Shown here one piece after another: positions 35,167-60,742 of a stretch of DNA of 64,000 bases. The notes under the pieces were generated by a model. That model saw only the letters and a program-made list of their open reading frames with translations, had not been told where the DNA came from and ran no database searches. The position numbers and the translations under genes were made by a program. The stretch comes from a virus. The stretch covers positions 7,823 to 71,822 of the IMG/VR virus record IMGVR_UViG_3300017731_001834, one strand, 5' to 3'. Each line of letters starts with the position of its first letter. Position 1 is the stretch's first letter.

Positions 35167-35174
35167 ATATTTAT
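35167..35174 (+). promoter_or_regulatory. Late-type motif heading the glycan island
   Basis: ATATTTAT, identical to the motif upstream of the sheath and tube genes. Confidence 0.5.
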
Positions 35175-35198
35175 ATATGTATATACAGAGGTTTTATT

Positions 35199-35390
35199 AT
35201 GAATTACAAACTAACATCAGTAAAAATATTGAAAGAATTATATAAAAATTTCAAGACAAGCACGGTTGAAAGCGAATTTACGTTACAAAAATTAGTAAAT
35301 CGTTCAATGGATTTATATGTGCTTGATTCTGATTTTAAAAATAAAATAAATTCTTATAACAACTTAATACCAAGTGGGAGTAGATTATGA
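35199..35390 (+). CDS. Small protein, possibly ribbon-helix-helix-like
   Basis: LTSVKI (beta strand) followed by two helices (TLQKLVNRSMDLY). Confidence 0.55.
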   Translation: MNYKLTSVKILKELYKNFKTSTVESEFTLQKLVNRSMDLYVLDSDFKNKINSYNNLIPSGSRL

Positions 35391-35629
35391 GCAATATGAG
35401 AGAAGACTTTATAAATGCTTTAAGATTAAATTTTAAAGCGAATATTGAAAAACACCGTGTAAACGTAGAAAGTATTATGTGTAATTCTGTGGGTATCGGT
35501 GAGCATGGAGACTTGATGGATGAGATGGAGAAAGAGATAAGCAAAATGGCTGACTACGCAGATAAGTTAGAAATGTTGGATTACTTTGAAGCTGAAGTGG
35601 GGCCAAACAAAACAGTTTTAAAAGGTTAG
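35387..35629 (+). CDS. Small helical-hairpin protein (VGIGEH motif)
   Basis: ATGA coupling; NSVGIGEHGDLMDE. Confidence 0.65.
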   Translation: MSNMREDFINALRLNFKANIEKHRVNVESIMCNSVGIGEHGDLMDEMEKEISKMADYADKLEMLDYFEAEVGPNKTVLKG

Positions 35630-35636
35630 AGGTTAT

Positions 35637-37025
35637 ATGTCTAAGAAAAAAATATTATTACTTTCAGATGATTTAAGAATGTCAAGTGGTGTCGGTACAA
35701 TGTCAAAAGAATTTGTTTTAGGCACAATAAATCATTATGATTGGGCTCAAATAGGTGGAGCTATAAAACATCCTGAGAATGGTAAGAGGGTTGATATGAA
35801 TCAAGTCTCAAGAGAAGAGACTGGCGTTGAAGATGCATCATTAACAATCTATCCAACCAGCGGATATGGTAATCCTGATTTGTTAAGACAGATTATGGAT
35901 TTAGAACAGCCAGATGCTATCTTACACTACACCGACCCAAGGTTTTGGAGATGGTTATACGATATGGAACATGAGATAAGACAAGAGATTCCAATATTCT
36001 ATTACAATATTTGGGACGATTGGCCAGCTCCACAATACAATGAAAACTTTTATGAATGTTCTGACTTGATTATGAATATATCAAAACAAACAGTAGCGAT
36101 TGTAAATGAAGTTGCAAAGAATAAACCACGTACAAAAACTGATTGCACATACTTACCACATGGTATAAGTGAAAAATATTTTAAACCAATATCAATATTT
36201 GATGATGAGTATAATAGTGTGTTGGAAATGAAAAAACAATTAACTGATGAAAATGTGGAATTTATTGTGTTTTACAATAACAGAAATATCCGTCGTAAAT
36301 TACCAGGTGATGTAATAATGGCATTTAAATATTTTTGTGATATGTTACCAAAAGAAGAAGCTGATAAATGTGCATTGTTAATGCATACTCAGCCAGTAGA
36401 TGATAATGGTACAGATTTACCAGCAGTAGCCAAAGCAGTGGCACCAGATTGTAAAGTATACTTTAGTTCAAAAAAATTAGATGCAGATAAATTAAACTAT
36501 CTTTATAATATGGCTGATGTTACGGTTAATATGGCTTCTAATGAGGGATTTGGATTGGGTACAGCAGAATCATTAATTGCTGGTACACCAATCGTTGTTA
36601 ATGTTACAGGTGGATTACAAGACCAATGTGGTTTTAAACTTAATGGTAAACATATTACATCTGATGATTATAATGAAATAAAGTCATTACATGATGATAG
36701 AAAATGGGCTCACAATGAAGAGTTAACTTGGGGTGATTGGGTTAAACCTGTTTGGCCATCAAATAGATGTTTGCAAGGTTCACCTCCCACACCATATATT
36801 TTTGACGATAGATGTAGATGGGATGATGTTGGTGATAACATATACGAATGGTATATGATGGATGAAGAAAAAAGAAGAGAGTGTGGAATGAAAGGACATG
36901 ATTACGTAAAACGTGAGGATGTTATGATGACTTCCAAAATGATGTCTGACAATTTTATAGAACAAATGGACAAAGTTTTTTCTGAGTGGAAGCCAAGAAA
37001 AAGATTTACCATTTTTAAAGCATAG
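35637..37025 (+). CDS. GT4-like (GT-B) glycosyltransferase
   Basis: SGVG, PHGI, NRNIRRK and EGFGLGTAES (Ex7E). Confidence 0.88.
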   Translation: MSKKKILLLSDDLRMSSGVGTMSKEFVLGTINHYDWAQIGGAIKHPENGKRVDMNQVSREETGVEDASLTIYPTSGYGNPDLLRQIMDLEQPDAILHYTDPRFWRWLYDMEHEIRQEIPIFYYNIWDDWPAPQYNENFYECSDLIMNISKQTVAIVNEVAKNKPRTKTDCTYLPHGISEKYFKPISIFDDEYNSVLEMKKQLTDENVEFIVFYNNRNIRRKLPGDVIMAFKYFCDMLPKEEADKCALLMHTQPVDDNGTDLPAVAKAVAPDCKVYFSSKKLDADKLNYLYNMADVTVNMASNEGFGLGTAESLIAGTPIVVNVTGGLQDQCGFKLNGKHITSDDYNEIKSLHDDRKWAHNEELTWGDWVKPVWPSNRCLQGSPPTPYIFDDRCRWDDVGDNIYEWYMMDEEKRRECGMKGHDYVKREDVMMTSKMMSDNFIEQMDKVFSEWKPRKRFTIFKA

Positions 37026-37033
37026 AGGTTATA

Positions 37034-38362
37034 ATGAGTAAGCCAGTATTATTAGTAACAGCGCCTGTAGCAACAAGAAGTGGTTATGGAGCACACGCGA
37101 GAGATATAGTTCGTTCCTTAATTGAGTTAGATAAATATGACGTTAAGATTTGGAACGTACGTTGGGGAACCACTCCGTTAAATGCTTTAGATAAATCTTC
37201 TGAAAGGGATAAACCAATAATAGATAGATTGTTACAGACTCCACAACTACCTAATCAGCCTGATATACATATTCATATCGTAGTTCCAAATGAATTTAGT
37301 CCAATTGGTAAATACAATATAGGTATTACGGCAGGTTTAGAATGCACGATTGTACCACCTGAATGGATGCAGGGATTAAATAAGATGGATATGAATATTG
37401 TTCCATCAACGTTTGTTTCTAATACCCTACGAAACATAAATTTTGATATAAAGGATGAAAAAACACAAGAGCTAAAAGGCGTATTAAAATTAGATAAACC
37501 CATGGAAGTTTTGTTTGAGGGTGTTGATAATACAGTTTACAAAAAGACTAAAGAGTTTAGTAAAGAGCTTGTTGATGAAATGAAATCTATAAATGAATCA
37601 TTTAACTTTCTCTATGTAGGACATTGGTTACAAGGTGGATTAGGTGAAGATAGAAAAGATACAGGTATGTTAGTGAAAGTTTTCTTAGAGACTTTTAAGA
37701 ACCAAAAAGTTAAACCTGGCTTAATACTAAAGACAAGTGGTGCTGGATTCTCTGTTTTAGATAGAGAGGAAATTCTCAAAAAAATTAGAGATATTAGAAA
37801 TTCTATTAGTGGAGATTTACCTAACGTATATTTATTACATGGAGACTTACAAGACGAAGAAATAAATGAATTGTATAATCATCCAAAAGTAAAAGCACAC
37901 GTTAACTTAACACATGGTGAAGGATTTGGTAGACCATTGTTAGAAGCTTCAATATCAGGTAAACCAATCATAGCTTCATCATGGAGTGGACAATTAGACT
38001 TCTTGAATTCAAATTCAAGCGTATTAGTTTCAGGTAGGATGACCGACGTACCAAAATCAGCTCTTCCAGAAAAGATGCATGTTGATGGAACGCAATGGTT
38101 TACTGCTGATTATCAAGAAGCATCATCTTATATGAAAGACGTATATAAAAATTACAAAAAATATACATCTAATTCCATGAAGTTAGGTAAAGTAAATGAA
38201 TCATTGTTTTCTTTAAAAAGGATGACAAAAGAACTTGGTAAAATACTAGATAACTATGTTCCTGATTTTCCAAAAGAGGTTGAATTAAAGCTACCAAAGT
38301 TGAAAAAAGTAGGACAGAAAGTTAAACCAAAAATAGAATTACCAAAACTAAAGAGAGTATAA
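37034..38362 (+). CDS. GT4-like (GT-B) glycosyltransferase
   Basis: SGYG, RKD and GEGFGRPLLEA (Ex7E). Confidence 0.88.
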   Translation: MSKPVLLVTAPVATRSGYGAHARDIVRSLIELDKYDVKIWNVRWGTTPLNALDKSSERDKPIIDRLLQTPQLPNQPDIHIHIVVPNEFSPIGKYNIGITAGLECTIVPPEWMQGLNKMDMNIVPSTFVSNTLRNINFDIKDEKTQELKGVLKLDKPMEVLFEGVDNTVYKKTKEFSKELVDEMKSINESFNFLYVGHWLQGGLGEDRKDTGMLVKVFLETFKNQKVKPGLILKTSGAGFSVLDREEILKKIRDIRNSISGDLPNVYLLHGDLQDEEINELYNHPKVKAHVNLTHGEGFGRPLLEASISGKPIIASSWSGQLDFLNSNSSVLVSGRMTDVPKSALPEKMHVDGTQWFTADYQEASSYMKDVYKNYKKYTSNSMKLGKVNESLFSLKRMTKELGKILDNYVPDFPKEVELKLPKLKKVGQKVKPKIELPKLKRV

Positions 38363-38805
38363 TGGAAATAAAAATAAATTGCCCAATTTGTTATAGCACA
38401 AAAAAATGTTTTGAAGAAAAACAAGAGGAATATAGTTCTTATCTTTGTTTTAAATGTGGTTATATGAGTGATTCAAGGTATGAAATCGGTAGTCTAAGTG
38501 TTTTAAATAACATTAAAAAATCACCAAAGTTAGTTCAAGATACGGTATACGAAGATAAAGAAAGAAATATAGTTTGGCTATTATCTGTGATAAACATGGG
38601 ACAGATGGGTATGATTTATCCTGAGGGTTCAGCTGAAATATATGAGTGGAAGTATGCAAAGGTTGTTACTATACCTGAGGAAGAAAGAAAAAACTACGAT
38701 GGTCACGTTCAGAGATTAGATGTAGAAAATGCTAAATCATTTCATAAGTTTGATTTCTTATCTGCTTGTGATGAATTGGGTATGACCAAAAGAGTATTTA
38801 ACTAA
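38362..38805 (+). CDS. Zinc-finger hypothetical protein
   Basis: CPIC...CFKCG. Confidence 0.65.
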   Translation: MEIKINCPICYSTKKCFEEKQEEYSSYLCFKCGYMSDSRYEIGSLSVLNNIKKSPKLVQDTVYEDKERNIVWLLSVINMGQMGMIYPEGSAEIYEWKYAKVVTIPEEERKNYDGHVQRLDVENAKSFHKFDFLSACDELGMTKRVFN

Positions 38806-39272
38806 TGCCTAAACAAGTATACGCTTGGGGAAAAGTAAAAGCTGGTGATATTATATCTTTTAGGTATAACCAAAACCTAAATACTCTTTTAGTTTTAAAT
38901 GTTCAATTACCTTTCAGAAAGAAAGATGGCAGTAAATCACTTCATTTGGTTGGATTGAAATTAGAAGAAAAAGGAACTATTAGGACAATACGAAGTCAAC
39001 CTATGCTAGTAACAATATTAGAAACAATTGGTGAAATAAAATTAGTAGAGGGTAGTGATGATATTTTTAGGTTAGACATACCAAATACTCAACGACTCGG
39101 TGTTAGAAGAGACGTGTATATTAAAATAGAAAGATTTTTAAAAGCAAATAGCGTATATCGAACATACGATTATATGAAAGCTAAAAAATCACAAGTGTTT
39201 CTTGAACCAATTGAATTACCAAAAAATGTTATAGAAGCGATAATATCAGATGAGGAATTAAGTGAAGATTAG
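38805..39272 (+). CDS. Hypothetical protein
   Basis: TAATG coupling; GDIISFRY...YRTY. Confidence 0.6.
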   Translation: MPKQVYAWGKVKAGDIISFRYNQNLNTLLVLNVQLPFRKKDGSKSLHLVGLKLEEKGTIRTIRSQPMLVTILETIGEIKLVEGSDDIFRLDIPNTQRLGVRRDVYIKIERFLKANSVYRTYDYMKAKKSQVFLEPIELPKNVIEAIISDEELSED

Positions 39273-39906
39273 TTATGGTATAACAGTCCACAATGAGGCT
39301 GATGAATTAAATAGGTTATTAGAAACTCTAATACACAAAACAGATGTAGAAGATGAGATAGTTATTTGTGTTGATGGTAACGATGAAAAAGTACAAGAAG
39401 TTATTATGAGTTGGGTTCAACAATATGGAAGTGATGATATTGATAAAAAGAAAGACATCATAGTATATAATAGAAAACTTGAAAATGACTTCGCAGCTCA
39501 TAAAAATTCAGTTATAGAAAAATCTACAGGTGATTATATATTTCATATTGACGCCGACGAGTATCCAAGTGATGCTTTGTTACTACACATGAAACCTATC
39601 TTAGAAGCAAACGATATAGATTTGATTTGGGTTCCAAGAATAAACACGGTTGATGGCTTAACTGAGAGTCACATACAAAAATGGGGATGGAGAGTTACAG
39701 AAAATGGTTGGGTAAATTATCCTGATTATCAAGCAAGAATATTTAAAAGAGATAAAGATATAAAATGGATTAAACCAGTTCATGAAATTATTTCAGGTGC
39801 TAACACCTATTCACATTTGCCACCAAATGAAACTCTAAGTCTATATCATCCTAAGACAATAGATAAACAAGAAAAACAAAATGCACTATATGAGTCAATA
39901 ATATGA
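39262..39906 (+). CDS. GT2 glycosyltransferase
   Basis: ISYGITVHNE, DFAAHKN, IDADE, PDYQARIF and VHE. Confidence 0.88.
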   Translation: MKISYGITVHNEADELNRLLETLIHKTDVEDEIVICVDGNDEKVQEVIMSWVQQYGSDDIDKKKDIIVYNRKLENDFAAHKNSVIEKSTGDYIFHIDADEYPSDALLLHMKPILEANDIDLIWVPRINTVDGLTESHIQKWGWRVTENGWVNYPDYQARIFKRDKDIKWIKPVHEIISGANTYSHLPPNETLSLYHPKTIDKQEKQNALYESII

Positions 39907-41339
39907 TTTTTTGGAGAATATTAGATAATGATGTTTATCCTGTAGAAGAAGTAACAAAACTTGGCTTCAATGAACAAGATGGAGTTAGGGTACCAGATGA
40001 GTATTTAGAGGGTAGAAATTTCATAGTCATGCGTAGTTGTCATGGTCTTGGAGATTGGGGTGTTATATCCGCAATGCCAAGATTATTAAAAGAAAAGTAT
40101 GAAGATTGTAAGGTCTATGTACCATCACCAAAGTTACTCGAAAATTTATTTGGGGCTACCGATGATTGGGATAGTTGGTCAAATCCTTATGCTCATGTTG
40201 AAACTATTTTTTCTAATAATCCCTATGTTGATGGTTTTATTGATAGTTTTGAGGGTGATATATACCACGACCACTACAGAGTATACAATTTAGATGAACC
40301 AAATATATCAATGATAAAACAGATGTTAAAGTTCTGGCAGTTTGAGGAAAGTGAAATGAAAGATTGTATGCCAGAGTTATATTTTTCAGAGGAAGAAAAA
40401 GCTTTAGGTGAGGAAGTGATAGCTCAGTATACAGCTAATTTAGAGTTTGCTTGTTTATTAATATCAGATAGATACGATTACACAATGGATAAAGAGATGA
40501 GACAAGTTATAGATGAAGGTATACCTCATTTCTATTGGACGGAAAGACCGATTGAACAAACATCATTTCACGATGTTTACAAAGCGATGGATTTAAGACA
40601 CGTCCCAATTAGAATACAACTTTATATAAAATCACAGGCTAAATATAACGTTGGTAATCAGGTTGGAACCTCACAATTATGTGCCAGATACAATCCTACA
40701 CACACTATACAAAGACAATTTCCAATAGCTCATAACTTTGTAGATAACGAAAATTTAATTACTAATGAAGAGAAGAGATTATTATTAAAAGGTCTACCTG
40801 ATAAAACTGAATCAAAAACAACAACAAGTTTAAAATTTAAAGCAGACTTCTATGATTACTTTAAGGGAAAAAGTGAGGACTTAAAAATATTAGAGATTGG
40901 TTCTTCACTTGGACACTCCACTAAATTATTAAGTCATCTTTTTAAAAAAGTTATAGCTGTTGATAATTTAGAATTTAGACATTTAGAATCACAAAAGATA
41001 AATGGTGATAAGGATAATATAGATTATGTTGTGATGGATGTTTATGAAGATAGATGGAACTTTGAAGAAATAGACGCTGTCTTTATTGATTGCGTTCACG
41101 ATTATAATCATGTGAAAAGTGATATTAATAACTCTTTATCATTACTAAAATCAGGTGGTTATTTAATCTTTGATGACTATGGTTTATTTCCAGAAATAAA
41201 AAAAGCAGTTGATGAATATATTGATGATAGCAAATTAAAAATTATTGAAAAAGTTGGACACTATAAAGGAGCATATTATCCAACAACACAAAACAAAGTA
41301 TTAAAAGATAGAGAGGGCATTATATGTCAGGTCGTGTAG
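39903..41339 (+). CDS. Fusion of a GT9-like glycosyltransferase and a class I SAM methyltransferase
   Basis: N-terminal HGLGDW...FSNNPYVD...PELYFS; C-terminal LEIGSSLG, FIDCVHDY and LKSGGYLIFDDY. Confidence 0.7.
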   Translation: MIFWRILDNDVYPVEEVTKLGFNEQDGVRVPDEYLEGRNFIVMRSCHGLGDWGVISAMPRLLKEKYEDCKVYVPSPKLLENLFGATDDWDSWSNPYAHVETIFSNNPYVDGFIDSFEGDIYHDHYRVYNLDEPNISMIKQMLKFWQFEESEMKDCMPELYFSEEEKALGEEVIAQYTANLEFACLLISDRYDYTMDKEMRQVIDEGIPHFYWTERPIEQTSFHDVYKAMDLRHVPIRIQLYIKSQAKYNVGNQVGTSQLCARYNPTHTIQRQFPIAHNFVDNENLITNEEKRLLLKGLPDKTESKTTTSLKFKADFYDYFKGKSEDLKILEIGSSLGHSTKLLSHLFKKVIAVDNLEFRHLESQKINGDKDNIDYVVMDVYEDRWNFEEIDAVFIDCVHDYNHVKSDINNSLSLLKSGGYLIFDDYGLFPEIKKAVDEYIDDSKLKIIEKVGHYKGAYYPTTQNKVLKDREGIICQVV

Positions 41340-42016
41340 TCTATACTTCAATTTTTGGTGATTATGATGATAAACAAGAACAGCAGTTACCAGAGGGATG
41401 GGAATGGAAATGTTTTGATGAGACTAATAGTGTAAAGTTTTATTCCGATAACAATAGAAATGCAAAAAAGTTCAAAGTTTTACCTCATAGATGTTTTGGT
41501 GTGGATTATGAGTATAGTATTTTTATTGATGGTAATATGAAAGTGGTTGGAAATATTGACGAACTGATTGATAAATATCTGAGTGATGCTAACGTTGCTT
41601 TTTATAGTCATAACAATAACTCGTTAGATGCTCGTAATTGTGCATATGAAGAGGCTAAAACAATATTTTCTTTGGGTGAAAGAAATATGAAAGCAACACC
41701 AGAAAGAGGAATGTTAAATTATAAGGATAACCCAAAGATTATAAAAAAACAAATGGATAGATATGCTCATGAGGGATTTCCAACAAGTAATGGTTTAATT
41801 ACAGGCATGGTTATATTGAGAAGACACAATGAATCTGATTGTATGAAGGTGATGGAAGATTGGTGGACTGAAATAAAATACGGAAGTAAGAGAGACCAAC
41901 TAAGTTTTAATTATGTGGCTTGGAAAAACAATCTTAAGTTTAATTATATGGATGGTGATTCAAGAAACAATGATTATTTTATTAGAGACACTAAACCACA
42001 CAAGGGTAAAAAATAA
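41324..42016 (+). CDS. DUF616 / TOD1-MUCI70-like glycosyltransferase
   Basis: VVYTSIFGDYD, KVLPH, IFIDG, YEEA and RDQLSFNY. Confidence 0.8.
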   Translation: MSGRVVYTSIFGDYDDKQEQQLPEGWEWKCFDETNSVKFYSDNNRNAKKFKVLPHRCFGVDYEYSIFIDGNMKVVGNIDELIDKYLSDANVAFYSHNNNSLDARNCAYEEAKTIFSLGERNMKATPERGMLNYKDNPKIIKKQMDRYAHEGFPTSNGLITGMVILRRHNESDCMKVMEDWWTEIKYGSKRDQLSFNYVAWKNNLKFNYMDGDSRNNDYFIRDTKPHKGKK

Positions 42017-42801
42017 TGAAAAAAATAGCTATTATAGGTCATGGTTATGTAGGTAAGGCGATGAGTAAATTTTTTGAGGCTCATTATGAATTAGAGATAT
42101 ATGACCCACCAGCAGGTTATGATGTTAGTAAAGAAGAGGTAAATGATTGTGAGGCAGCTTTTGTTTGTGTACCAACTCCAAGGAGTGAGGATGGAAGTTG
42201 TGATACCTCTCTCGTTGAGGAAGTTGTTAGTTGGATTGAAACAGATTTCATAGTGATAAAATCCACCATTTCAGTTGGTACGACAGATAGGTTAGTGAAA
42301 AAATACAATAAGAGAATAGTATTTTCACCTGAGTACGCTGGAGAATCAACATATTGGAGTCCCTATCTTTTCCATACTGATATGAAAGAGACTCCGTTTT
42401 TTACTTTTGGTGGTGATGAGAGAGTATGTAGTGATGCGATTGACCTAATTTTACCTGTTGTTGGCCCTTGTAAAAAATATAATATAAGTGATGCTAAAAC
42501 AGCTGAGATGGCTAAATATATGGAGAATGCATTCTACGCAACTAAGGTAGCATTTTGTAATGAGTTATATGATATCTGTGAGTCAGCTGACGTAGATTGG
42601 AATCAAGCTAGAGAGTTATGGTTATCAGACCCAAGAATTAATCCAATGCATACCGCCGTGTTTAAAGATAATAGAGGGTTTGGTGGAAAGTGTTTACCTA
42701 AAGATACAAGCGCTTTAGTTAGTATGGCTAAAGACTTTGGTGTACAATCAGATTTATTAGAGGGTGTTTTAAGCTCAAATGATAAGGTAAGGAACAAATG
42801 A
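42016..42801 (+). CDS. NDP-sugar (UDP-glucose/GDP-mannose) dehydrogenase, short form
   Basis: GHGYVG, CVPTP, KST, SPE, AEMAKYMENAF and GFGGKCLPKD. Confidence 0.88.
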   Translation: MKKIAIIGHGYVGKAMSKFFEAHYELEIYDPPAGYDVSKEEVNDCEAAFVCVPTPRSEDGSCDTSLVEEVVSWIETDFIVIKSTISVGTTDRLVKKYNKRIVFSPEYAGESTYWSPYLFHTDMKETPFFTFGGDERVCSDAIDLILPVVGPCKKYNISDAKTAEMAKYMENAFYATKVAFCNELYDICESADVDWNQARELWLSDPRINPMHTAVFKDNRGFGGKCLPKDTSALVSMAKDFGVQSDLLEGVLSSNDKVRNK

Positions 42802-51706: not shown

Positions 51707-52346
51707 AGATGGTGAGACTATGAGACTTGAAGAAGTCAGAGACCTCGGAATTAACCCAAAATCTATTTTAGATATTGGTGCTCATACTGGTCAATTTCAT
51801 GGTTGGTCAAAAAGAGTTTGGCCAGATGTTGGTGTTTTTATGATAGAAGCTAATCCATTACATAAGGATACGTTAAATAAATTAGCAACGGTAAATGGAG
51901 ACTCATCTTTGATAGCAGCTTTAGGTGATGAAGTGAGAGAGGTCACTTTTTATACAAGAAGTGATAAACCTCAGACGGAGGGTAATTCTTATTACAAAGA
52001 GCATAACTATTGGGACATACCACAATTAGTTCAAGAGAGTAAAGTTATGCTAAAAAGATTAGATGATATTTTTGAGGATGATGCTGTATTTGACTTAATC
52101 AAGGTGGACACACAAGGTTCAGAGTTAGATATTTTAAAAGGTGGTGAAAATTTGGTTAGTAGAGCATCAGCGATAATATTAGAAGTATCCTACATAGAAT
52201 ATAATGAAGGGGCCCCCAGTCAACAAGAAACACTTGATTATATGAAAGAAATCGGGTTTACACAAAAAATGAGTATCGGTGAACATTATAATGGAGAAGA
52301 AGTAGTGCAGAAAGATTTATTATTTTTAAGAATTGGAGAGAAATAA
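51696..52346 (+). CDS. FkbM-family methyltransferase
   Basis: LDIGAHTG, IEAN and LIKVDTQGSELDILKG. Confidence 0.85.
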   Translation: MAYRDGETMRLEEVRDLGINPKSILDIGAHTGQFHGWSKRVWPDVGVFMIEANPLHKDTLNKLATVNGDSSLIAALGDEVREVTFYTRSDKPQTEGNSYYKEHNYWDIPQLVQESKVMLKRLDDIFEDDAVFDLIKVDTQGSELDILKGGENLVSRASAIILEVSYIEYNEGAPSQQETLDYMKEIGFTQKMSIGEHYNGEEVVQKDLLFLRIGEK

Positions 52347-52347
52347 A

Positions 52348-53556: not shown

Positions 53557-53962
53557 TTTAACTGATGTAAAAAAGTTTACCCTACGGACTTTTGATGAGC
53601 CAGATGGTTGTTTAACCCCAATAGAATTTGGAACAGATATACCATTTAAATCAAAAAGAATATTTTATGTGTATGGGGTCAAAGACCAAAATGATAGAGG
53701 GAAACACGCTCACCACAAAACAAAACAAGTGTTGATTTGTCTATCAGGTCGTGTAGATGTAATTTGTGATGATGCTGAGAATCGTGAGAGATACGTATTA
53801 TGTGAACCAAACGATGCGATTTATATACCAGAGATGATTTGGGATGAACAAATTTACGTTGAAAAAAATAGTGTGTTATTGGTGATAGCTAACACTAATT
53901 ATAATAAAGATGATTACATAGAAGACTATGAAGAATTCTTAAAACTAAAAGGGAGTGATTGA
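53549..53962 (+). CDS. dTDP-sugar 3,4-ketoisomerase (FdtA/QdtA/WxcM-like cupin)
   Basis: IPF..KRIFYVY, RGKHAH, QVLICLSG, WDE and DYIEDYEEF. Confidence 0.85.
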   Translation: MTNLTDVKKFTLRTFDEPDGCLTPIEFGTDIPFKSKRIFYVYGVKDQNDRGKHAHHKTKQVLICLSGRVDVICDDAENRERYVLCEPNDAIYIPEMIWDEQIYVEKNSVLLVIANTNYNKDDYIEDYEEFLKLKGSD

Positions 53963-54609
53963 TGGAAGAGATACCATTTCCGCACATTTCAATACCAAAC
54001 TTTGTTAAAAACGAAACATTAGTTAGAGCGGCTGCAGAAAGTTTTGAACAATTAGATAGTTGGGTTGAATATGGTGATGGCGAAAATGATGGACAAATAC
54101 AATATTGTTCAGAGTTGGGTAGAAAAAATTATCCACCAGCAGCATTGGCTGTCTTAGATTACATATGTGAAAACTTTAACCCAAATGATTATTTTGTGGA
54201 ACAACTAAAATGTTTTCCAGACCATGAATTTTATGGTGGTGGTATGATGAATACACCAAATCGTAATGATGAGGGTGGATATTTAGGTATGCACGTCGAT
54301 GCAAGTCATCATGGGGTGCACACGAATTGGGTTAGGTGTTACAGCGTAATACTTTGCATTTCTGAAGACTATGACGAGTCGTTTGATTTACGTCTCTTTG
54401 ATGGACAATACTCTGGTGCTAAATTAAAGTATGAATTTAATACTCTAAATGTTTTTAGATGTTCAGCAAACTCTTGGCATGGATTACCCGAAATAACTAA
54501 GGGTCTAGATAGAAAAGCATTAGGTGTGGTGTATTGGAGAATATCAGATAACGATGATGTACCAATGGTTAAAGCTAAATTTTATAATCAAATGGAGTTA
54601 TTTAAATGA
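53959..54609 (+). CDS. 2OG-Fe(II) dioxygenase (prolyl-hydroxylase-like)
   Basis: PFPH..IPNF, GGYLGMHVD (HxD), SWHG and RKALGVVYW. Confidence 0.75.
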   Translation: MMEEIPFPHISIPNFVKNETLVRAAAESFEQLDSWVEYGDGENDGQIQYCSELGRKNYPPAALAVLDYICENFNPNDYFVEQLKCFPDHEFYGGGMMNTPNRNDEGGYLGMHVDASHHGVHTNWVRCYSVILCISEDYDESFDLRLFDGQYSGAKLKYEFNTLNVFRCSANSWHGLPEITKGLDRKALGVVYWRISDNDDVPMVKAKFYNQMELFK

Positions 54610-55358
54610 AAAAAATAATGGTTACAGGTGGTGCTGGTAGATTTGCTCAGCACATAAATAATATTACAAAAGATGATGATAATTATCAGGTTTTACTTCC
54701 AACAAGACAAGAAATGGATTTTACTAAATTTTGGGATTGTGAAAAGTATTTTTATGCGAATCAAAAAGATTTTGATTATGTAATACATTCAGGTGGTCTA
54801 TCATCACCAATGAGAAGACATAAAGAGAATCCGACCTTAAGCATAAACACTAACATAGTTGGAACTTGTAATATAGCTATGATGTGTGAAAGATTCGATA
54901 AGAAGATGATTTACATATCAACAAACTATGTTTATCCTGGTTTATTTGGTAATCAAGATGAGGAATATGGACTAAAACCATTTAATGCTTATGGATGGTC
55001 TAAGTTAGGTGGTGAATGTGCAGTTCATCATTACATAGATAAATTTTTAATATTAAGAGCTTGCATGAACGCTGTTCCATTTCCACACAAAAAAGCATTT
55101 ACCGATGTCATAAGTTCTCATATGTATGCTGACGAAGCGGCTGATGTGACTTTAAAATTATTAGATGAGGTGGGTATAATAAATGTTGGTGGAGAGGCTC
55201 AGACTGTTTATGACTTTGTAAAACCTCATGAGCCTGAGGTAGGTAAGATAAGTGTTAGAGATATATCTGACGTTGAGGTAAATCCAAATAGTAGTATGAA
55301 CATAGACAAAATGAAAAGGTTATTAGATGATTCAACTATTTCACATTCAAAATCATAA
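54606..55358 (+). CDS. dTDP-4-dehydrosugar reductase (RmlD-like)
   Basis: VTGGAG, YISTNYVY, YGWSKLGGE and LILR. Confidence 0.8.
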   Translation: MKKIMVTGGAGRFAQHINNITKDDDNYQVLLPTRQEMDFTKFWDCEKYFYANQKDFDYVIHSGGLSSPMRRHKENPTLSINTNIVGTCNIAMMCERFDKKMIYISTNYVYPGLFGNQDEEYGLKPFNAYGWSKLGGECAVHHYIDKFLILRACMNAVPFPHKKAFTDVISSHMYADEAADVTLKLLDEVGIINVGGEAQTVYDFVKPHEPEVGKISVRDISDVEVNPNSSMNIDKMKRLLDDSTISHSKS

Positions 55359-56271
55359 GATAGATACATCTGATTATTCACATAGTCTACATGACAAGGG
55401 TGTTGAAGAATTAGAAAAAAATATAGCTAATTATGTTGGTGCTAAATATGCTTGTGCGGTTAACAGCGCCACAAGTGCTATATTTTTGATTATGAAAGAA
55501 AAAAGAACCTACGTTAGAGAGCCAGTTACAATTAACATTCCAAGTATGATACCACCTGTAGTTGCAAACGCAGCCTTGACAAGCGGTTTCTTTCACAAAT
55601 TAAACTTTGTAGATGATGTTGAGTGGATGGGTGACTCTTATGTTCTTCATCAATTTAAAGATTATAAGGTTGTAGATTCAGCTCAAAAGTTAGAAAAAAA
55701 TCAATTTAAAAAAGAATGTAACGATGAAGACCTAATGATATTCAGTTTTTATCCGACTAAACCATTAAGTGGCTTAGATGGTGGTATGATAGTTACAAAT
55801 GATAAGGACAAGTATGAATATTATAAGTCGGCAGTATTAAATGGTATGTCATACTCAGATAACAATTGGGAAAGAAAAATTAGTTTTCCTGGTTACAAGA
55901 TGTACATGAGTTCATTTCAAGCTGATATCATATTAAGAAACTTTAAACACTTTGAAAAAAAACAAAGGGCTTTGAAACAATTATGTGATAGGTATAATAA
56001 AGAATTTGGTTGTGAAAATAAAAGCACCCATCTCTATATAATTGAAACAAAAAATAACAAAAAATTTGTTGAAAAAATGAGAGAGAGTGGTGTTATGGTA
56101 GGTATCCATTATCCAGCTCTACATCTCAATGACATATATTCAAAAAATTGGAGATTTGATTGTCCTAAATCAGAATATTTAAATGATAAGGTTGTTTCAT
56201 TACCAATGAATGAAAAGCTATCATTCAATGATTTTGAAACAATAATAGAAAAGGTAAAGTTATATAAATGA
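55327..56271 (+). CDS. DegT/DnrJ/EryC1/StrS sugar aminotransferase
   Basis: VGAKYACAVNSATSA, DSAQ, FSFYPTKPL..DGGMI, GYKMYM, IHY and SLPM. Confidence 0.85.
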   Translation: MIQLFHIQNHKIDTSDYSHSLHDKGVEELEKNIANYVGAKYACAVNSATSAIFLIMKEKRTYVREPVTINIPSMIPPVVANAALTSGFFHKLNFVDDVEWMGDSYVLHQFKDYKVVDSAQKLEKNQFKKECNDEDLMIFSFYPTKPLSGLDGGMIVTNDKDKYEYYKSAVLNGMSYSDNNWERKISFPGYKMYMSSFQADIILRNFKHFEKKQRALKQLCDRYNKEFGCENKSTHLYIIETKNNKKFVEKMRESGVMVGIHYPALHLNDIYSKNWRFDCPKSEYLNDKVVSLPMNEKLSFNDFETIIEKVKLYK

Positions 56272-56801
56272 AAATTCCAAGTCACGGTAAATACGAATGG
56301 TTACCAAAATTATATGATGCGGTATCAGCTCTAAAACCCAAAACAATTATTGAATTTGGCCCAGCATCAGGCGTGACAACTATCACCATGGCACAAGCTC
56401 TAAAGGATAATAATATAGATGGAAAGATAAAATCCTATGATATATGGGATGATAGTTATTGGGGAAGTCAATGGAATTGTCAAATTAATATTGACGCGTG
56501 GGCTGTAAGAGACTATGTACAACTAAATCACTTAGATTTTTACGATTGGATTAAAGAACCAGAACAATTTGATTTTATGTATTTTGATGTTAATAATAAT
56601 GGTAATAAGCTAGAAGATTTAAATAATTGTGTGAGAGAGCAGATTAATATGGGAGGTTCCGTGGTTTATTTTGAGGGTGGTTCAGTTGAGAGAGACAAAT
56701 ATGTTCAAGATGGTTTCAAAAAAATGAACGATGTTAAATCAGAAATAGGTTATGAAGTGTTGACAGAAAATGTAAAATACTCACTATCGAGGATATCATG
56801 A
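56268..56801 (+). CDS. Class I SAM methyltransferase
   Basis: KPKTIIEFGPASG and FDFMYFD. Confidence 0.7.
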   Translation: MKIPSHGKYEWLPKLYDAVSALKPKTIIEFGPASGVTTITMAQALKDNNIDGKIKSYDIWDDSYWGSQWNCQINIDAWAVRDYVQLNHLDFYDWIKEPEQFDFMYFDVNNNGNKLEDLNNCVREQINMGGSVVYFEGGSVERDKYVQDGFKKMNDVKSEIGYEVLTENVKYSLSRIS

Positions 56802-57685
56802 AAGTATTAGTTGTAGCTACGGGCTGGCATTATAGTTCTCATTTTTATCAACAAATGATTAAGCAAGAGGTGCCAGATGGGTGGTCTGTAGACTATCATT
56901 CTGTAGCTCATCGCTCACCTGATGATGAAAATACAATTCTTGAAAAAGAAAATGTGAGAAACCACTCTAATTTAGAGAGTTTTTGGGAAGAGTTAGATTT
57001 ATTGATGTATGAGGCACCAATAACAAAAAAAGAAATCGAAGAGCTTGGATGGGGTTATTCAGAAGAAGAAAATACTGTCGGTGACATGGAGTGTTTTAAT
57101 CAATGGGCTGATAAAAATGATTACACTCAATACGATTCTATATTAATAACTCACGATGATAATTTAATATTATCTGACCAATTATTTGTTGATATGGATA
57201 AGAGAGTCGATGTTTTAAAACCTAACTCTGATAGATATGGTTCAGCTAATCATCAAGTCAAGACAACTAAAATTAGTTTAGATGATGATTGGTATTTTCT
57301 TGATAATGGTTATACAGAAAATATACCGAAAGCGTTAACACCACGAGGTTCGTTTTGTTTTTATAAGAAAGAATTAATTGACCTTTTACCTAATAATAGA
57401 TTTAATATGTATGAAGAGGGTGGATTAGGTGTTGTCAATAGAGTGGGAGAAACTAATAGTGTTGGTTACGATGGTATATCAGCTTGGAACGCTCACGCTG
57501 GAACTTTCAGAGAGTTTCTTTATGAACATAATTTAGTCCCCAAAATAAGATGGTTTTCTGACGTAAAGAGAGTTAGTAAATATTGTATTGAGGGTGAGAG
57601 AGGATTTGTTACAGGCAATAGAGCTAATGAGCATGGTTACGAAAAAGCTGTACAAGATATATTGACGGAGATAGGATGGATATAA
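56798..57685 (+). CDS. Putative GT-A glycosyltransferase
   Basis: ILITHDDN (xDD motif) and RGSF; located in the glycan island. Confidence 0.5.
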   Translation: MKVLVVATGWHYSSHFYQQMIKQEVPDGWSVDYHSVAHRSPDDENTILEKENVRNHSNLESFWEELDLLMYEAPITKKEIEELGWGYSEEENTVGDMECFNQWADKNDYTQYDSILITHDDNLILSDQLFVDMDKRVDVLKPNSDRYGSANHQVKTTKISLDDDWYFLDNGYTENIPKALTPRGSFCFYKKELIDLLPNNRFNMYEEGGLGVVNRVGETNSVGYDGISAWNAHAGTFREFLYEHNLVPKIRWFSDVKRVSKYCIEGERGFVTGNRANEHGYEKAVQDILTEIGWI

Positions 57686-58413
57686 GACAGCCAATAATAC
57701 ACGACAGGCATTTAGTAAAAACAGAGTTTGCTAGATTAAAACAAAGACTTCAACCTGATTGTTTTGAATTACCAAAAGACTTGACGATAGTTACTTGTAG
57801 AAATAAAGGCTCAATGGAAGACAGAATAATAGACCACCTCAAGGGTTATGAGGACATATCTATTTTAGAGCAAAATCTTGAGTATCTTGGTGTCCAATTA
57901 AAAGTGTTAAGGGACGATAGATTACCTTGGAGAAATACGTTTAAATTTGAGTTGTTAAATCGTTATTTAAATAGTGGAGAATGTAAAACGGAATATTTTA
58001 TGTGTGTTGACGCTATTGATGTGATATTTAAAGATGACCCACAAAAAGTTATTGATATATTCTTAGGTTTTGATTGTGAAGCACTTTTTATGTCAACAAC
58101 ATCTTTAGATGGTTACAATTGTATGCCAGATATATTTAATCAGGTATTAGATATAAATAAAGATAATGGTAGGTATCTAAATAGTGGTGTTTACATTGGT
58201 AGAACAGACTTTATTAAAGAGGTTATAGAATCAGCTATGTCGTATGCAAATCCACCAGGTGTAACAATGGATGACTACAGAGATTATTTGGCTAGTGAGC
58301 CTAAAGATTATCCTTTGGGTTCTCAAGACCAAGATATTTTTAGATTTTTAGAACCTAAGTTTTACCCAAGACTAAAAATCGATTATGATAACGTTATGGC
58401 TTATAGAGGATAA
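57676..58413 (+). CDS. PLOD/LH3-type glycosyltransferase-domain protein
   Basis: KFELL..YL, CVDAIDVIF, YLNSGVYIG, DQDIF and LKIDY. Confidence 0.7.
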   Translation: MDIRQPIIHDRHLVKTEFARLKQRLQPDCFELPKDLTIVTCRNKGSMEDRIIDHLKGYEDISILEQNLEYLGVQLKVLRDDRLPWRNTFKFELLNRYLNSGECKTEYFMCVDAIDVIFKDDPQKVIDIFLGFDCEALFMSTTSLDGYNCMPDIFNQVLDINKDNGRYLNSGVYIGRTDFIKEVIESAMSYANPPGVTMDDYRDYLASEPKDYPLGSQDQDIFRFLEPKFYPRLKIDYDNVMAYRG

Positions 58414-58414
58414 T

Positions 58415-59326
58415 ATGAAAGTAGCATTTTTTTCAGAGGTGGGTGAGAATCAAAGATACCCAAGAGATTTTCCAAACGCTAGAACAGAAGTAGCTTGGTG
58501 TTTAGCACTTGATGCACCAATGTGTCACTTAACGAATTTACCTAATGAACATTTTGATTTGGGTATAGTAATAATCCCAAAAAATAATCCGAACGTTGAT
58601 TTAAATCATATAAGACAAATTTGTGATAAAGTTGCCGTTATGCAAGAGGGGCCACATTGGTTCTTTCAGGACTATGACATAACTAATCAGTTTCATTATT
58701 ATAATTGTCTTATGGATGCTGATTGGGTTTATTGTCATAATTACTCTGATATAAAATATTATAAGGGGTTAGGTTGTGAAGATGTAAGAGTAATGAGAAG
58801 TTTGATGATACCTGAGGGATTAATTCCAAGAAGTGAATGGGGAGATGCCACAATGATAGGTGGTAACTTTGTTAGTTGGTATGGTGGTTTTGATTCCTAC
58901 GTAGTTGCAAGAGAGATTGATGACCCTATATCAGCTCCGTCAATGGGTAGAAAACAAGAACAAGAAAACATGATATCTGATATTAAATATCTACCATACA
59001 TGAGTTGGAGAGAGTGGATAGATTGTTTATCACAATATAATATAGGTATTCACTTGATGAGAACACATGCAGCTGGTACATTTGCTATGAATTGTGCTTT
59101 TCATGGAATACCTTGTATTGGATATCGTGGTTTAGATACGCAAGAGTTGTTACATAATAATACCATGGTGGATCCTGGTGACTTGTTTGAGGCAAAAAAA
59201 ATAGCGAAACAATTAAAAGAAGATACTTATTTTTATAACGAGTGTAGTCAAATAGCCATAGAAGGATTTAGCAAATACTACACCGAAGAAAAGTGGAAAG
59301 AGAGTTTCAATAATGAAACCAATTAG
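58415..59326 (+). CDS. Putative GT-B glycosyltransferase
   Basis: KVAFFSE; YLPYMSW...AGTFAMNCAFHGIPCIG. Confidence 0.6.
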   Translation: MKVAFFSEVGENQRYPRDFPNARTEVAWCLALDAPMCHLTNLPNEHFDLGIVIIPKNNPNVDLNHIRQICDKVAVMQEGPHWFFQDYDITNQFHYYNCLMDADWVYCHNYSDIKYYKGLGCEDVRVMRSLMIPEGLIPRSEWGDATMIGGNFVSWYGGFDSYVVAREIDDPISAPSMGRKQEQENMISDIKYLPYMSWREWIDCLSQYNIGIHLMRTHAAGTFAMNCAFHGIPCIGYRGLDTQELLHNNTMVDPGDLFEAKKIAKQLKEDTYFYNECSQIAIEGFSKYYTEEKWKESFNNETN

Positions 59327-60506
59327 TTTTATACAACCAAGTAGAAATAATCTAAAATACCTTAAATGGTCATATAATAGTATTCGTAAAAATCTTGGAC
59401 ACATACACGAGATATGTTGGGCTGATGATTTTTCAGACGACGGAACTTGGGAGTGGATGCAAGAGATAGCAGAGAAAGACCCAAATGTAAAAATACATCG
59501 TAACGAGGGGCCAAATAGGTTAGGGCACACCATTCTATATGATACCCTCGTTAACGATTATGCTACAAATGATATCGTAATGATATATCACGCTGATATG
59601 TATGCTTGTCCAAATCTTGATGAGATGATTATCAAACACATTGAGCCAGGTGTTGTCGTATCAGCTACAAGAATAGAACCACCATTACATCCCGATGGGC
59701 CAGAGAAACTGTTATATGATTGTGGTATTGAGCCAGAGGAATTCCAAGAACAAAAGTTAATGGACTATATAGAAAATTTAAACATAGGTGGTGAAACATC
59801 AAAAGGTATATTCGCTCCATGGGCTATATACAAAGACGACTTCCAAGCGATAAATGGACACGACCCACTATACGCACCACAATCAAAAGAGGATAGTGAT
59901 ATTTTCAATAGATTCGTGTTAGCTGGTTATGATTTAGTTCAAACTTGGGAGGGTTTTGTTTATCATATGACCTGTAGAGGTAGTAGATTCAAGGATGGAG
60001 CATTAAGGAATCCAGCTGGTCAAGTATTTATGAAAGGTAGAGAGTCAAGTGAGTGGTTGGCTCAGAATTTACGTAGTACAAGAAACTTTATTCGTAAATG
60101 GGGTCACATGGTCAAACATGATAATAAGATGTATCCTATCATACCACCAAAATATGATATTGGTTTTGTGGTTAAAAATTGTGACGCAAATCTATTAAAA
60201 GAATTAGAGCCTTGGTGTTCTACAATATATGTTGATTGTGAATATAACGATTACATAAAAGAGGAACAAAGAAACACAGCCTTTGATTTATCAGATAGGG
60301 TTAAACCATATGACAATGAAAAGAATAATAATATCATTGTTGAGTTCGATGCTAAAATGTTAAATGCTAATAACTTTCAGGTGATAGTGAATCTTTCAGA
60401 GATGTTCAATGACTCAGCTGAAGTTGGTGATATGGAATATGATATATTTACATTTAATATTAACTCATTAGAAACCTATGAATCAGATTTAATTATTAGA
60501 GAATGA
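59313..60506 (+). CDS. GT2 glycosyltransferase
   Basis: ISFIQPSRNN, DDFSDDGT, HADM, EDSDIFNR, YH and FIRKWG. Confidence 0.85.
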   Translation: MKPISFIQPSRNNLKYLKWSYNSIRKNLGHIHEICWADDFSDDGTWEWMQEIAEKDPNVKIHRNEGPNRLGHTILYDTLVNDYATNDIVMIYHADMYACPNLDEMIIKHIEPGVVVSATRIEPPLHPDGPEKLLYDCGIEPEEFQEQKLMDYIENLNIGGETSKGIFAPWAIYKDDFQAINGHDPLYAPQSKEDSDIFNRFVLAGYDLVQTWEGFVYHMTCRGSRFKDGALRNPAGQVFMKGRESSEWLAQNLRSTRNFIRKWGHMVKHDNKMYPIIPPKYDIGFVVKNCDANLLKELEPWCSTIYVDCEYNDYIKEEQRNTAFDLSDRVKPYDNEKNNNIIVEFDAKMLNANNFQVIVNLSEMFNDSAEVGDMEYDIFTFNINSLETYESDLIIRE

Positions 60507-60742
60507 TATACTACTTATTATTAGATGGTGACAACGAGAAAGACTTGATGTATGAAACAAATATGTTGGGTGAAGAAAGTTTTAAAGTGTTCTATCCATC
60601 GCTAGGGCTTTCAATATTGAATAGAATTGTGGTTGATAAGCCAGAGTTGTTAGAACGATTAAAGATAGTGGACGAGCAAAAGAAGTATTATACTATCGAA
60701 GAATTTTTAAACAAATTAGAAAAATGGAAAATAAAAGCTTGA
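60503..60742 (+). CDS. Hypothetical protein
   Basis: ATGA coupling; last gene before the next promoter. Confidence 0.6.
   Translation: MIYYLLLDGDNEKDLMYETNMLGEESFKVFYPSLGLSILNRIVVDKPELLERLKIVDEQKKYYTIEEFLNKLEKWKIKA

Follow-up and report, generated by a model that had tools for sequence, protein, structure and literature searches.

A phage glycosylation island without export genes, with conserved glycosyltransferase ends and an exchangeable core: a candidate system for virion-protein glycosylation

A tightly packed island of glycan genes without export machinery

We analyzed a window of 64,000 nt, bases 7823-71822 of the 71,822-base linear virus record IMGVR_UViG_3300017731_001834, for which CheckV estimates a completeness of 39%. 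All long open reading frames (ORFs) of the window lie on the + strand, and between positions 35199 and 60742 they form a glycosylation island, 33 + strand ORFs of at least 60 aa arranged as one tight operon. Thirty of the 32 junctions within it are overlaps, of 4 nt (10 junctions), 1 nt (five) or 7-40 nt (15), and the other two are gaps of 7 and 8 nt. An earlier note on this DNA had described about 30 co-oriented genes, mostly with overlapping joins, and phage genes on both sides, and both descriptions hold. The clamp loader and a PD-(D/E)XK nuclease lie on the upstream side, next to other replication genes, and a small-ORF block with an HNH endonuclease lies downstream. GC content is 0.305-0.348 in the island and 0.305-0.391 in the rest of the window, with even composition across the island and its flanks. 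A megablast search of the island against 50,697 phage records gave no match.

At a Pfam threshold of E ≤ 0.01, glycosyltransferase (GT)-type domains occur in eight island ORFs, named here by their first position (35637, 37034, 39262, 41324, 44391, 50984, 57676 and 59313). Two further ORFs (42798 and 58385) are leads, which brings the total to at most 10, fewer than the approximately 12 GT-like ORFs counted earlier. One of two proposed GT9-like ORFs was found (44391), while the other, 43601, proved to be a short-chain dehydrogenase/reductase (SDR) resembling heptose epimerases. The rest of the earlier inventory agrees with the profile searches. Pfam confirms five methyltransferase domains (ORFs 39903, 50268, 51696, 52333 and 56268), and the nucleoside diphosphate (NDP)-sugar enzymes found are a UGD-like dehydrogenase, the heptose-epimerase-like SDR, FdtA, an RmlD-like protein and DegT. 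A phosphonate pathway is marked by the phosphoenolpyruvate (PEP) mutase PepM, which scores 361.7 bits on TIGR02320, above the equivalog cut-off of 319.55.

No genes for glycan export or priming accompany these enzymes. In a crude hydropathy scan for transmembrane (TM) segments (19-residue window, Kyte-Doolittle ≥ 1.6), none of the 33 island ORFs contains a hydrophobic window, and the 140 ORFs examined in and around four relatives' islands include seven with one hydrophobic segment and none with two. Six-frame searches for Wzx (PF01943), Wzy (PF04932), ABC-2 (PF01061), Bac_transf (PF02397) and WecA-type (PF00953) proteins found nothing in five records (G000 and G002-G005). All of these families except Wzy, whose search covered the five records only, were likewise missing from two complete genomes, those of Flavobacterium phage immuto and Microcystis phage Mel-JY01. 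Controls for the export-family searches were positive in 10-14 of 14 genomes (10 and 12 of 14 for Bac_transf and WecA-type), and five of the seven records are fragments, so that absence there covers the sequence present. Neither GtrA nor GtrC is among the island Pfam matches, the GtrB-like signal is a single weak PHROG match (E 1.5e-4), and the island Pfam scan recognized no Maf- or FlmG-type protein GT. Both tests bear out the earlier statement that multi-TM, export and priming proteins are lacking. In immuto, an ORF annotated 'LptF' 6 kb past the island was also considered and set aside, as it has 111 aa and is no real permease.

Conserved ends enclose an exchanged core

The owner of the island is an abundant marine T4-like lineage, a group that includes immuto and Mel-JY01, the latter being the closest cultured phage by family-B DNA polymerase (PolB; 47% identity). 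IMG/VR yielded 146 confirmed matches to close relatives, and 74 loci were kept. Five longer relatives, G001-G005, were fetched, and each window ORF was compared with all five.

Two blocks of genes occur in the same order in all five relatives: a 5' block (63-aa ORF, GT4-A, GT4-B, Zn-ribbon protein, 155-aa protein and GT2) and a 3' block (313-aa protein, 397-aa GT2 and 79-aa ORF). The 18.5-kb core between them (39903-58413) is collinear with G001 only, and the other four relatives carry different cores of approximately 10-30 kb. Whereas the flanks are 46-92% identical, these four cores have 2-5 of the 23 window core ORFs in common, at no more than 43% identity. A scan of 93 of their 99 ORFs (six boundary-crossing ORFs were left out) identified NeuB and a CMP-transferase, both in G003, along with PseB-like enzymes, GDP-mannose dehydratase, a dTDP-sugar isomerase, a sulfotransferase, an ATP-grasp enzyme, a radical SAM enzyme, formyltransferases and PIG-L deacetylases. 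The earlier note had suggested a swappable core between conserved GT4/GT2 ends and named island content across related phages as the check; with the core replaced in four of five relatives, cassette exchange between conserved ends is strongly supported.

The same ends recur well beyond these genomes. The 25 PolB-linked IMG/VR loci that continue for 7.5 kb or more downstream all have the nuclease, orf63 and GT4-A in order, and GT4-B is seen in 24, the remaining locus ending too early. In immuto, a core of 6 kb is enclosed by the same frame (nuclease, orf63, GT4-A, GT4-B, Zn-ribbon protein and GT2, then the core, GT2 and HNH), and Mel-JY01 has a reduced island at the same genomic site. Many island enzymes come from bacterial families, as would be expected of an assembly chimera or captured host DNA. 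However, the same junctions recur in 25 of 25 independent contigs and the two cultured complete phage genomes, base composition is even, a conserved phage promoter precedes the island, and the whole stretch is collinear with G001. These results contradict a host-derived join and make an artifact of this kind exceedingly improbable, in agreement with the earlier view of the island as native to the phage.

The island is under purifying selection. Compared with G001, dN/dS is 0.045-0.28 for all 31 island ORFs with measurable (unsaturated) dS, including the UGD-like gene and the split decarboxylase described below. The dS values against G001 are uneven over the island, ranging from 0.17 to approximately 2, which suggests mosaic exchange within the cassette. 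G001 also carries an extra 312-aa ORF before the 3' framework (G001 35464-36402; L078:15464-16402) that is absent from the window, and this ORF and the swing in dS together point to recent exchange inside one cassette type.

Framework genes

The island begins with two small conserved ORFs of 63 and 80 aa (35199-35629; + strand, as for every island gene below) that have no assigned function. The 63-aa ORF is present in all five relatives and in immuto, and the 80-aa ORF matches phrog_1811, a family of unknown function. GT4-A (35637-37025; 462 aa) is a GT-B protein in which the EX7E motif is kept, and it scores 30.2 bits on PF00534 (cut-off 26.4). Its identity is 66-85% in the five relatives, where PolB ranges over 62-95%, 44% in immuto and 47% in Mel-JY01, and its dN/dS is 0.063. 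GT4-A has matches in at least 8000 database clusters; of 50,697 phage records, 12 match it at E ≤ 0.001, and the best PDB sequence match is B736L of chlorovirus NY-2A (3oy2, E 4.3e-9). GT4-B (37034-38362; 442 aa) is also a GT-B protein (PF00534, 27.1 bits) whose C-terminal domain has 27% identity to that of GT4-A, and it is kept in all relatives, immuto (48%) and Mel-JY01 (42%). Because both proteins retain E-x7-E, they are not a GtfA/GtfB-like pair of one active and one inactive GT4.

The next two genes each overlap the gene upstream by 1 nt, which suggests that they are co-produced with GT4-B. The first encodes a 147-aa Zn-ribbon protein (38362-38805) with an invariant CxxC...CxxC pattern, present in immuto at 30% identity. 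Its family comprises 524 clusters at 50% identity and has so far been found only in viral records, the nearest ESM Atlas clusters being labeled 'Viruses 100%'. The AF2 model is confident (pLDDT 94.7). Foldseek found no PDB match at E ≤ 0.001, a wide VIA search gave a best Z of 4.6 (1bm8_A, rmsd 3.7, 67 aligned), which is no clear solved relative, and the one BFVD match is an uncharacterized phage protein. The second is a 155-aa conserved protein with no assigned function (38805-39272), found in all five relatives and absent from immuto and Mel-JY01. It is matched by 1242 database proteins, a PDB profile search returned no match, and its AF2 model (pLDDT 56.7) is too poor for a fold search. The last 5' framework gene encodes a 214-aa GT2 (39262-39906; PF00535, 57.3 bits) that is 50-70% identical in the relatives, 43% in immuto and 35% in Mel-JY01.

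At the other end, a 313-aa protein (58385-59326) has homologues of 46-70% identity in all five relatives and no family match in Pfam, NCBIfam or PHROGs. We read it as a probable GT-B-like protein from a C-terminal motif in our alignment. The island closes with a 397-aa GT2 that has a Glyco_transf_7C-like part, followed by the 79-aa ORF (59313-60742; PF00535, 43.6 bits). This GT2 is 70-92% identical in the relatives and 47% in immuto.

Sugar, methyl and phosphonate genes of the core

The first core gene (39903-41339) fuses a 320-aa N-terminal part of no assigned function to a SAM methyltransferase (PF13578, residues 330-426), and only the methyltransferase part has relatives in G002-G005. It is followed by a TOD1/MUCI70 (DUF616) glycosyltransferase-like protein (41324-42016; PF04765, 55.2 bits), which among the relatives occurs in G001 only. 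The UGD-like NDP-sugar dehydrogenase (42016-42801; PF00984 and PF03721) lacks the first ~70 positions and the C-terminal domain of the family model, scores 156.4 bits on TIGR03026, below the cut-off of 189.8, and has a dN/dS of 0.057. The ORF at 42798-43604 may encode a GT8-like nucleotide-sugar transferase. It has no Pfam match and is a lead from the ESM Atlas, where viral clusters named 'nucleotide-diphospho-sugar transferase' match it with a score of 0.99, one of them with PF01501 in 58% of members; homologues of 30-43% identity occur in the islands of all relatives.

A putative heptose branch (43601-45509) consists of a 267-aa SDR resembling ADP-glyceromanno-heptose 6-epimerase (TIGR02197, 179 bits; cut-off 274.6) and a 372-aa GT9 heptosyltransferase-like protein (PF01075, 61.2 bits). 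The GT9 protein matches six NCBIfam heptosyltransferase models, all below cut-off, the best being TIGR02193 with 73.9 bits against 185.3, and it is absent from four of the five relatives. A reading as an autotransporter heptosyltransferase was dropped, as only lipopolysaccharide (LPS) heptosyltransferase models, all below cut-off, are listed for it. Two ORFs of 253 and 381 aa with no assigned function follow (45506-47412; dN/dS 0.055 and 0.194), and neither matches anything in Pfam, NCBIfam, PHROGs or PDB sequences. An MpnS/HepD-type enzyme beside PepM was sought in this pair and was not supported by any PDB sequence match.

The phosphonate branch (47388-50274) comprises a cytidylyltransferase-PepM fusion, a two-piece phosphonopyruvate decarboxylase and an Fe-alcohol dehydrogenase. 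PepM also scores 174.9 bits on PF13714, and the cytidylyltransferase domain (PF01467, 58.7 bits, residues 18-139) presumably activates the phosphonate, a role described for such fusions. The decarboxylase is split, with TIGR03297 positions 2-122 in one ORF and 169-284 in the next; with 107 and 96.4 bits, neither piece reaches the cut-off set for the whole protein (312.5), and both are under purifying selection. The dehydrogenase matches TIGR03405 (PsrA) at E 2e-17, with a score below cut-off.

Next come an MT24 methyltransferase, a DUF5672 protein and an FkbM methyltransferase (50268-52346; PF13578, PF18922 with 79.6 bits and PF05050 with 66.7 bits), and then a deoxy-amino-sugar block (52333-56801). 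The block encodes a C-methyltransferase (PF08484, 146.3 bits), an FdtA 3,4-ketoisomerase (PF05523, 152.1 bits), a 2-oxoglutarate-Fe(II) oxygenase (PF13640), an RmlD-like protein (PF04321, 74.8 bits), a DegT aminotransferase (PF01041, 118.3 bits) and a second MT24 methyltransferase (PF13578). Pfam and NCBIfam revealed no counterpart of RmlA or RmlB among the island genes, so the deoxy-sugar branch should start from host dTDP-4-keto-6-deoxyglucose. The core ends with a 295-aa ORF of no assigned function and a 245-aa PLOD-type GT protein (56798-58413; PF25342, 31.6 bits). Both have orthologues in G001; the former also has a 37% match in G003, while the latter is found in G001 only.

Several island enzymes are markedly short or split: the UGD-like protein (261 aa; 42016-42801), the decarboxylase in two ORFs, the Fe-alcohol dehydrogenase (264 aa) and DegT (314 aa). 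The coordinates of the last three enzymes are 48691-49519, 49480-50274 and 55327-56271, and all of these genes are under purifying selection. Short UGD-like forms recur in G003 and G005.

Enzymes of this kind need not build a polymer-bound glycan. PepM, Ppd and Fe-alcohol dehydrogenase also open pathways to small-molecule phosphonates, all island enzymes appear soluble in the hydropathy scan, and several island ORFs have no known family. The glycan might sit on a host protein or on a non-structural protein of the phage, or the product might be a soluble glycoconjugate or a phosphonate metabolite. It could then serve as a decoy or an osmolyte, or as an inhibitor that lysis sets free. However, the number of transferases (eight to ten) and the cytidylyltransferase fusion argue for a product bound to a polymer, the neighbors 45506 and 46267 show no match to a later small-molecule phosphonate enzyme (a weak test), and a framework universal in the lineage better fits a structural role. 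We consider such a product unlikely.

Promoter motifs at the island boundaries

A class A promoter-like motif, TATATATTTATATATGTATATA, lies at 35164-35186 (+ strand), 13 nt upstream of the first island ORF. Near-identical copies precede the same ORF in G001-G005, and a similar one does so in immuto. The class A core, ATATTTAT[A/T], has 10 + strand matches in the window, and seven of them fall within 50 nt upstream of a start codon, while intergenic DNA (stretches of at least 25 nt) amounts to ~2 kb, or ~3% of the window. These seven precede a 68-aa ORF, the tail sheath, the tail tube, the baseplate operon, ThyX, ribonucleotide reductase (RNR) and the island. G004 has further copies before a baseplate-wedge operon, the gene after portal, an endolysin cassette, PhoH and two giant ORFs. 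In 70 kb of immuto, five of eight matches precede GroES, the island, a baseplate-leading operon, a tail-block gene and a tail spike.

At the downstream boundary, a class B promoter-like motif, TTGACTT-N16-CGTAACTT (60739-60775, + strand), opens the next transcription unit. Its general form, TTGACTT-N15-17-(C)GTAnCTT, also occurs before PolB (27232) and before the phrog_1485 gene at 33110 (motif at 33055), and in G004 before PolB, polynucleotide kinase and many small ORFs. Class B is probably the early or middle promoter class of the lineage. The T4 late promoter TATAAATA was tried as the late motif and rejected, as its 18 matches (13.05 expected) are not enriched and are not placed before genes. 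Generic sigma-70 scans of the sequence were likewise not enriched (9 matches against 12.2 expected and 23 against 19.9), and no terminator was found at the island ends.

The boundaries proposed in the earlier note, a late-type motif and a sigma70-like promoter, therefore correspond to the class A motif at 35164-35186 and the TTGACT-type motif at 60739. The label 'late-type' is only partly upheld: the motif is real, conserved and placed before sheath, tube, baseplate, lysis and tail-spike genes, but it also stands before ThyX, RNR and PhoH.

The acceptor of the glycan

Three acceptors had been left open by the earlier note: virion protein, DNA and LPS core. Phage GTs are classically DNA-modifying, and the T4-type glucosylation and arabinosylation of 5-hydroxymethylcytosine likewise involves phage GTs near replication genes. 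The island adjoins replication genes as well, a Mom-like DNA modification gene lies at 30513-31298, and there is a borderline match to PF20706 'GT4-conflict' (26.0 bits at a cut-off of 26). A glycan shield on a modified base, as in T4 and its relatives, is nevertheless very unlikely. ThyX (PF02511, 131.9 bits) is the sole thymidylate-synthase-like gene, no hydroxymethylase was found in the window, whose contig is a fragment, and the scale and variability of the island fit such a system poorly. We know of no precedent for a multi-enzyme, type-variable oligosaccharide on DNA at such scale. In addition, the DNA of immuto, which has the same framework, contains canonical dA, dC and dT, fdPreQ1 (324 Da) takes the place of all dG, and the accessible text of PMC10516641 reports no glycosylated nucleoside.

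The acceptor that we favor, with confidence somewhat short of even, is one or more virion proteins that would be glycosylated in the cytoplasm. Six locus variants carry no export, priming or ligase gene. Within the clade, conservation of GT4-A matches that of PolB, its identity is 44-47% across phages of Bacteroidota and Cyanobacteria, and a phage-encoded acceptor is a simpler account of this cross-phylum framework conservation than host glycans. The promoter class of the island is common to structural, assembly and lysis genes, and the framework includes the Zn-ribbon protein, whose family is so far known from viral records only. The chlorovirus protein as best solved relative of GT4-A and the purifying selection on the island ORFs fit this choice as well. 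Distant GT4-A homologues also support this choice: outside the clade and its nearest kin (RM378 and an unannotated 484-kb uncultured phage), all matches in cultured tailed phages lie in head modules, with the order portal-hypothetical protein-GT4-GalT-methyltransferase in S-CBS4 and major capsid protein-GT4-methyltransferase-GT2-neck in Pontimonas phiPsal1. In RM378, the homologue is near replication genes.

We infer the sugar products from family membership, with several scores below curated cut-offs, and the order of steps is likewise a reading of the genes. One conserved phage promoter, of a class also found before tail, baseplate and lysis genes, would drive ~25.5 kb of translationally coupled genes. 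The soluble enzymes would divert the host precursors UDP-glucose, dTDP-4-keto-6-deoxyglucose, ADP-heptose and PEP into a uronic acid, a methylated or branched amino-dideoxyhexose, L,D-heptose and a CMP-activated 2-hydroxyethyl-type phosphonate. GT4-A, GT4-B and GT2, with the Zn-ribbon protein, may lay down an inner glycan on a conserved cytoplasmic acceptor, to which the swappable core would add a type-specific, methyl-capped outer part, while the 313-aa protein and the 397-aa GT2 may act at a step common to all types. Cytoplasmic glycosylation of virion proteins has parallels in mycobacteriophages and giant viruses, and with such an acceptor the lineage would gain exchangeable 'particle serotypes'. 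We speculate, a shade more tentatively than on the acceptor itself, that the GT4/GT4/GT2 priming module and the terminal GT2 frame recombining cassettes of 10-30 kb that build such virion-protein glycans in the cytoplasm. In that case the virion glycan of the window phage would bear heptose, amino-deoxyhexose, methyl and phosphonate groups.

Several observations weigh against a virion acceptor. Apart from one Ser-rich tail-fiber segment, no S/T-rich or collagen-like acceptor was found in G000-G005, the head genes lying off this contig. Unlike the mycobacteriophage genes, the island lies outside head and tail modules and adjoins replication genes, and late timing is not proven because the class A motif also precedes ThyX, RNR and PhoH. 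A universal lipid primer, e.g. undecaprenyl-pyrophosphate-GlcNAc (Und-PP-GlcNAc), could be an alternative cause of the cross-phylum conservation. Conserved flanks with a hypervariable center are the anatomy of bacterial O-antigen, capsular polysaccharide (CPS) and lipooligosaccharide (LOS) loci, and GT9 and heptose-epimerase genes together are characteristic of LPS-core chemistry, as NeuB and a CMP-transferase (both in G003) are of LOS. Published views of marine myophage GT clusters, in the accessible text of PMC7029224 and PMC12801897, also favor modification of the host O-chain.

The anatomy, the heptose chemistry and the published reading of pelagimyophage and cyanomyophage clusters speak for remodeling of the host envelope, a possibility of real weight that we nonetheless hold to be less likely. 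Here the soluble enzymes would add sugars, on the cytoplasmic side, to a host acceptor that is either lipid-linked or lipid A-core, and host flippases, ABC transporters, MsbA or ligases would export the product. The altered LPS, LOS or capsule might, for example, block superinfection or the re-adsorption of progeny to debris. Relatives carry nonulosonic-acid, GDP-mannose dehydratase and dTDP-sugar genes, LOS-type synthesis requires no dedicated flippase or polymerase genes, and the phage encodes an outer-membrane TonB-dependent receptor and thus invests in the host envelope. On the other hand, the six locus variants have ~170 island ORFs, none of which encodes a transferase for priming, a flippase, a polymerase, a ligase or a transporter, and glycan-specific Wzx/Wzy or Wzm/Wzt usually accompany such cassettes. 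The framework GTs are kept across phages of Bacteroidota and Cyanobacteria, whose LPS cores differ. A promoter class shared with tail and lysis genes would leave little time for envelope renewal, and GT9 lies in the variable core and is missing from most relatives. Should the envelope be the target, this would be the first lytic phage to rewrite LPS or LOS by cassettes without export machinery of its own.

Relation to known glycosylation systems

Glycosylation of virion proteins in the cytoplasm, the reading that we prefer, has precedents. Mycobacteriophage systems have ~2-4 GTs adjoining capsid or tail genes. Virion O-glycosylation was reportedly described by Freeman et al. 2023 (Cell Host Microbe) for Che8, Corndog and Myrna, a system also cited in PMC12619734. 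There, as here, soluble phage GTs and methyltransferases occur without export genes, the glycan being made on phage proteins in the cytoplasm, and the distant GT4-A homologues of S-CBS4 and phiPsal1 have capsid genes as neighbors and repeat the GT/methyltransferase/GT pattern. In contrast, the island has 8-10 transferases, three sugar pathways, a phosphonate branch, a 25-kb operon beside replication genes and cassette exchange, and the virion acceptor known from mycobacteriophages is a proposed one here.

Giant viruses are closest in scale and in their bacterial-type sugar pathways. Chloroviruses carry capsid glycans, and Megavirinae have clade-specific fibril glycosylation clusters. Like the phage lineage, these viruses encode their own soluble GTs and NDP-sugar enzymes, including UGD and enzymes for bacterial-type amino-deoxy sugars, and have clusters that vary by clade. 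They are, however, eukaryotic viruses, and common ancestry of the loci is unsupported beyond the GT4 match (E 4e-9). To our knowledge, conserved flanks with exchange of a central cassette have not been described for them.

Bacterial serotype loci (O-antigen and CPS clusters, and the LOS and flagellin-glycosylation islands of Campylobacter) share the conserved flanks and a recombining central cassette of GT, NDP-sugar, nonulosonic-acid and methyltransferase genes, and the LOS and flagellin islands are likewise without flippase and polymerase genes. The phage island differs in being on a lytic phage and in having no priming transferase, Wzx/Wzy, Wzm/Wzt or ligase. The gtrABC cassettes of temperate phages are also a phage-encoded glycan change, but gtr proteins are membrane proteins that use Und-P-glucose in the periplasm, whereas the island proteins have no predicted TM segment.

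Among marine phages, the LPS-like clusters of cyanomyophages and pelagimyophages (P-SSM2, S-SCSM1, S-SCSM2R and the PMP host-recognition cluster) are similar in being T4-like and hypervariable, with many GTs and NDP-sugar enzymes (PMC7029224, PMC12801897). These clusters lie among tail-fiber genes or are scattered, are read as modifying the host O-chain, and include S-SCSM2R with 13 GTs counted genome-wide; the accessible text of the two papers describes no locus with fixed GT4/GT2 ends, a conserved promoter and no export genes. Our literature search found no description of a fixed-end, promoter-led, export-free, cassette-exchanging phage glycan locus, nothing on the glycan genes of immuto in the accessible text on that phage, and no paper on Mel-JY01.

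GT-rich regions of marine myophages have been taken as host-surface modifiers for twenty years, untested. This locus makes the question testable, as it has fixed ends and its own conserved promoter, is export-free and universal in the lineage, and is present in the cultured phage immuto. If it makes a virion glycan, the particles would bear a recombining surface-sugar code, with bearing on adsorption, on the grazing and sinking of particles, on lectin-type host defenses and on seawater pools of phosphonate and methyl sugars. If particle serotypes exist, this system of virion glycosylation would be the largest known from any phage and the first built on cassettes. It would parallel O-antigen diversity in bacteria and fibril glycans in giant viruses, with viral particles as a source of phosphonate in the sea.

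Neighboring genes

PHROG matches in the window identify structural genes (tail sheath, tail tube, baseplate hub and wedge), replication genes (single-stranded DNA-binding protein, UvsX-like recombinase, exonuclease, DnaB-like helicase, PolB, sliding clamp and clamp loader), and ThyX, RNR, a Mom-like protein and a PD-(D/E)XK-type exonuclease. The Mom-family DNA-modification protein (30513-31298, + strand; PF25680, 156.5 bits) lies between the sliding clamp and the clamp loader, and only G001 and G004 among the relatives have a counterpart. Directly upstream of the island promoter is a SLOG/YpsA-like protein of 137 aa (34750-35163, + strand; PF10686 and PF12694) that is kept in all five relatives. 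For 13 framework and flanking proteins, PADLOC returned only a ShosA-like partial match (the SLOG protein) and a mad2 match (a methyltransferase domain).

In the 7.8 kb upstream of the window (L002:10-7426) are three tail-fiber proteins of 463+, 855 and 912 aa, each with a Peptidase_S74 chaperone domain at its end. Repeated Ser-rich segments of the 'SSAQIA.DISGSF' type occur in an adjoining 107-aa ORF and in at least the two longer fibers (855 and 912 aa). A 211-aa ORF after the tail fibers has a GT-A-like start and no Pfam match. Relative G004 (L091:11000-13023) has a tmRNA gene (tag GDYQPSYSYAA) with tRNA-Ala, tRNA-Cys and tRNA-Gly, none of which occurs in the window.

The TonB-dependent receptor is a 935-aa ORF (23621-26428, + strand) with CarboxypepD_reg and Plug domains, as in SusC-like outer-membrane receptors. 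It is kept in G001, G003 and G004, with a dN/dS of 0.09. Phage-encoded 22-strand outer-membrane proteins are mentioned in the accessible part of a 2026 preprint. The best cellular relatives of the ORF are 51-68% identical and come nearly all from metagenome-assembled genomes of Marinimicrobia (SAR406), many on contigs of more than 200 kb, which hints that the phage host may be SAR406 rather than a flavobacterium.

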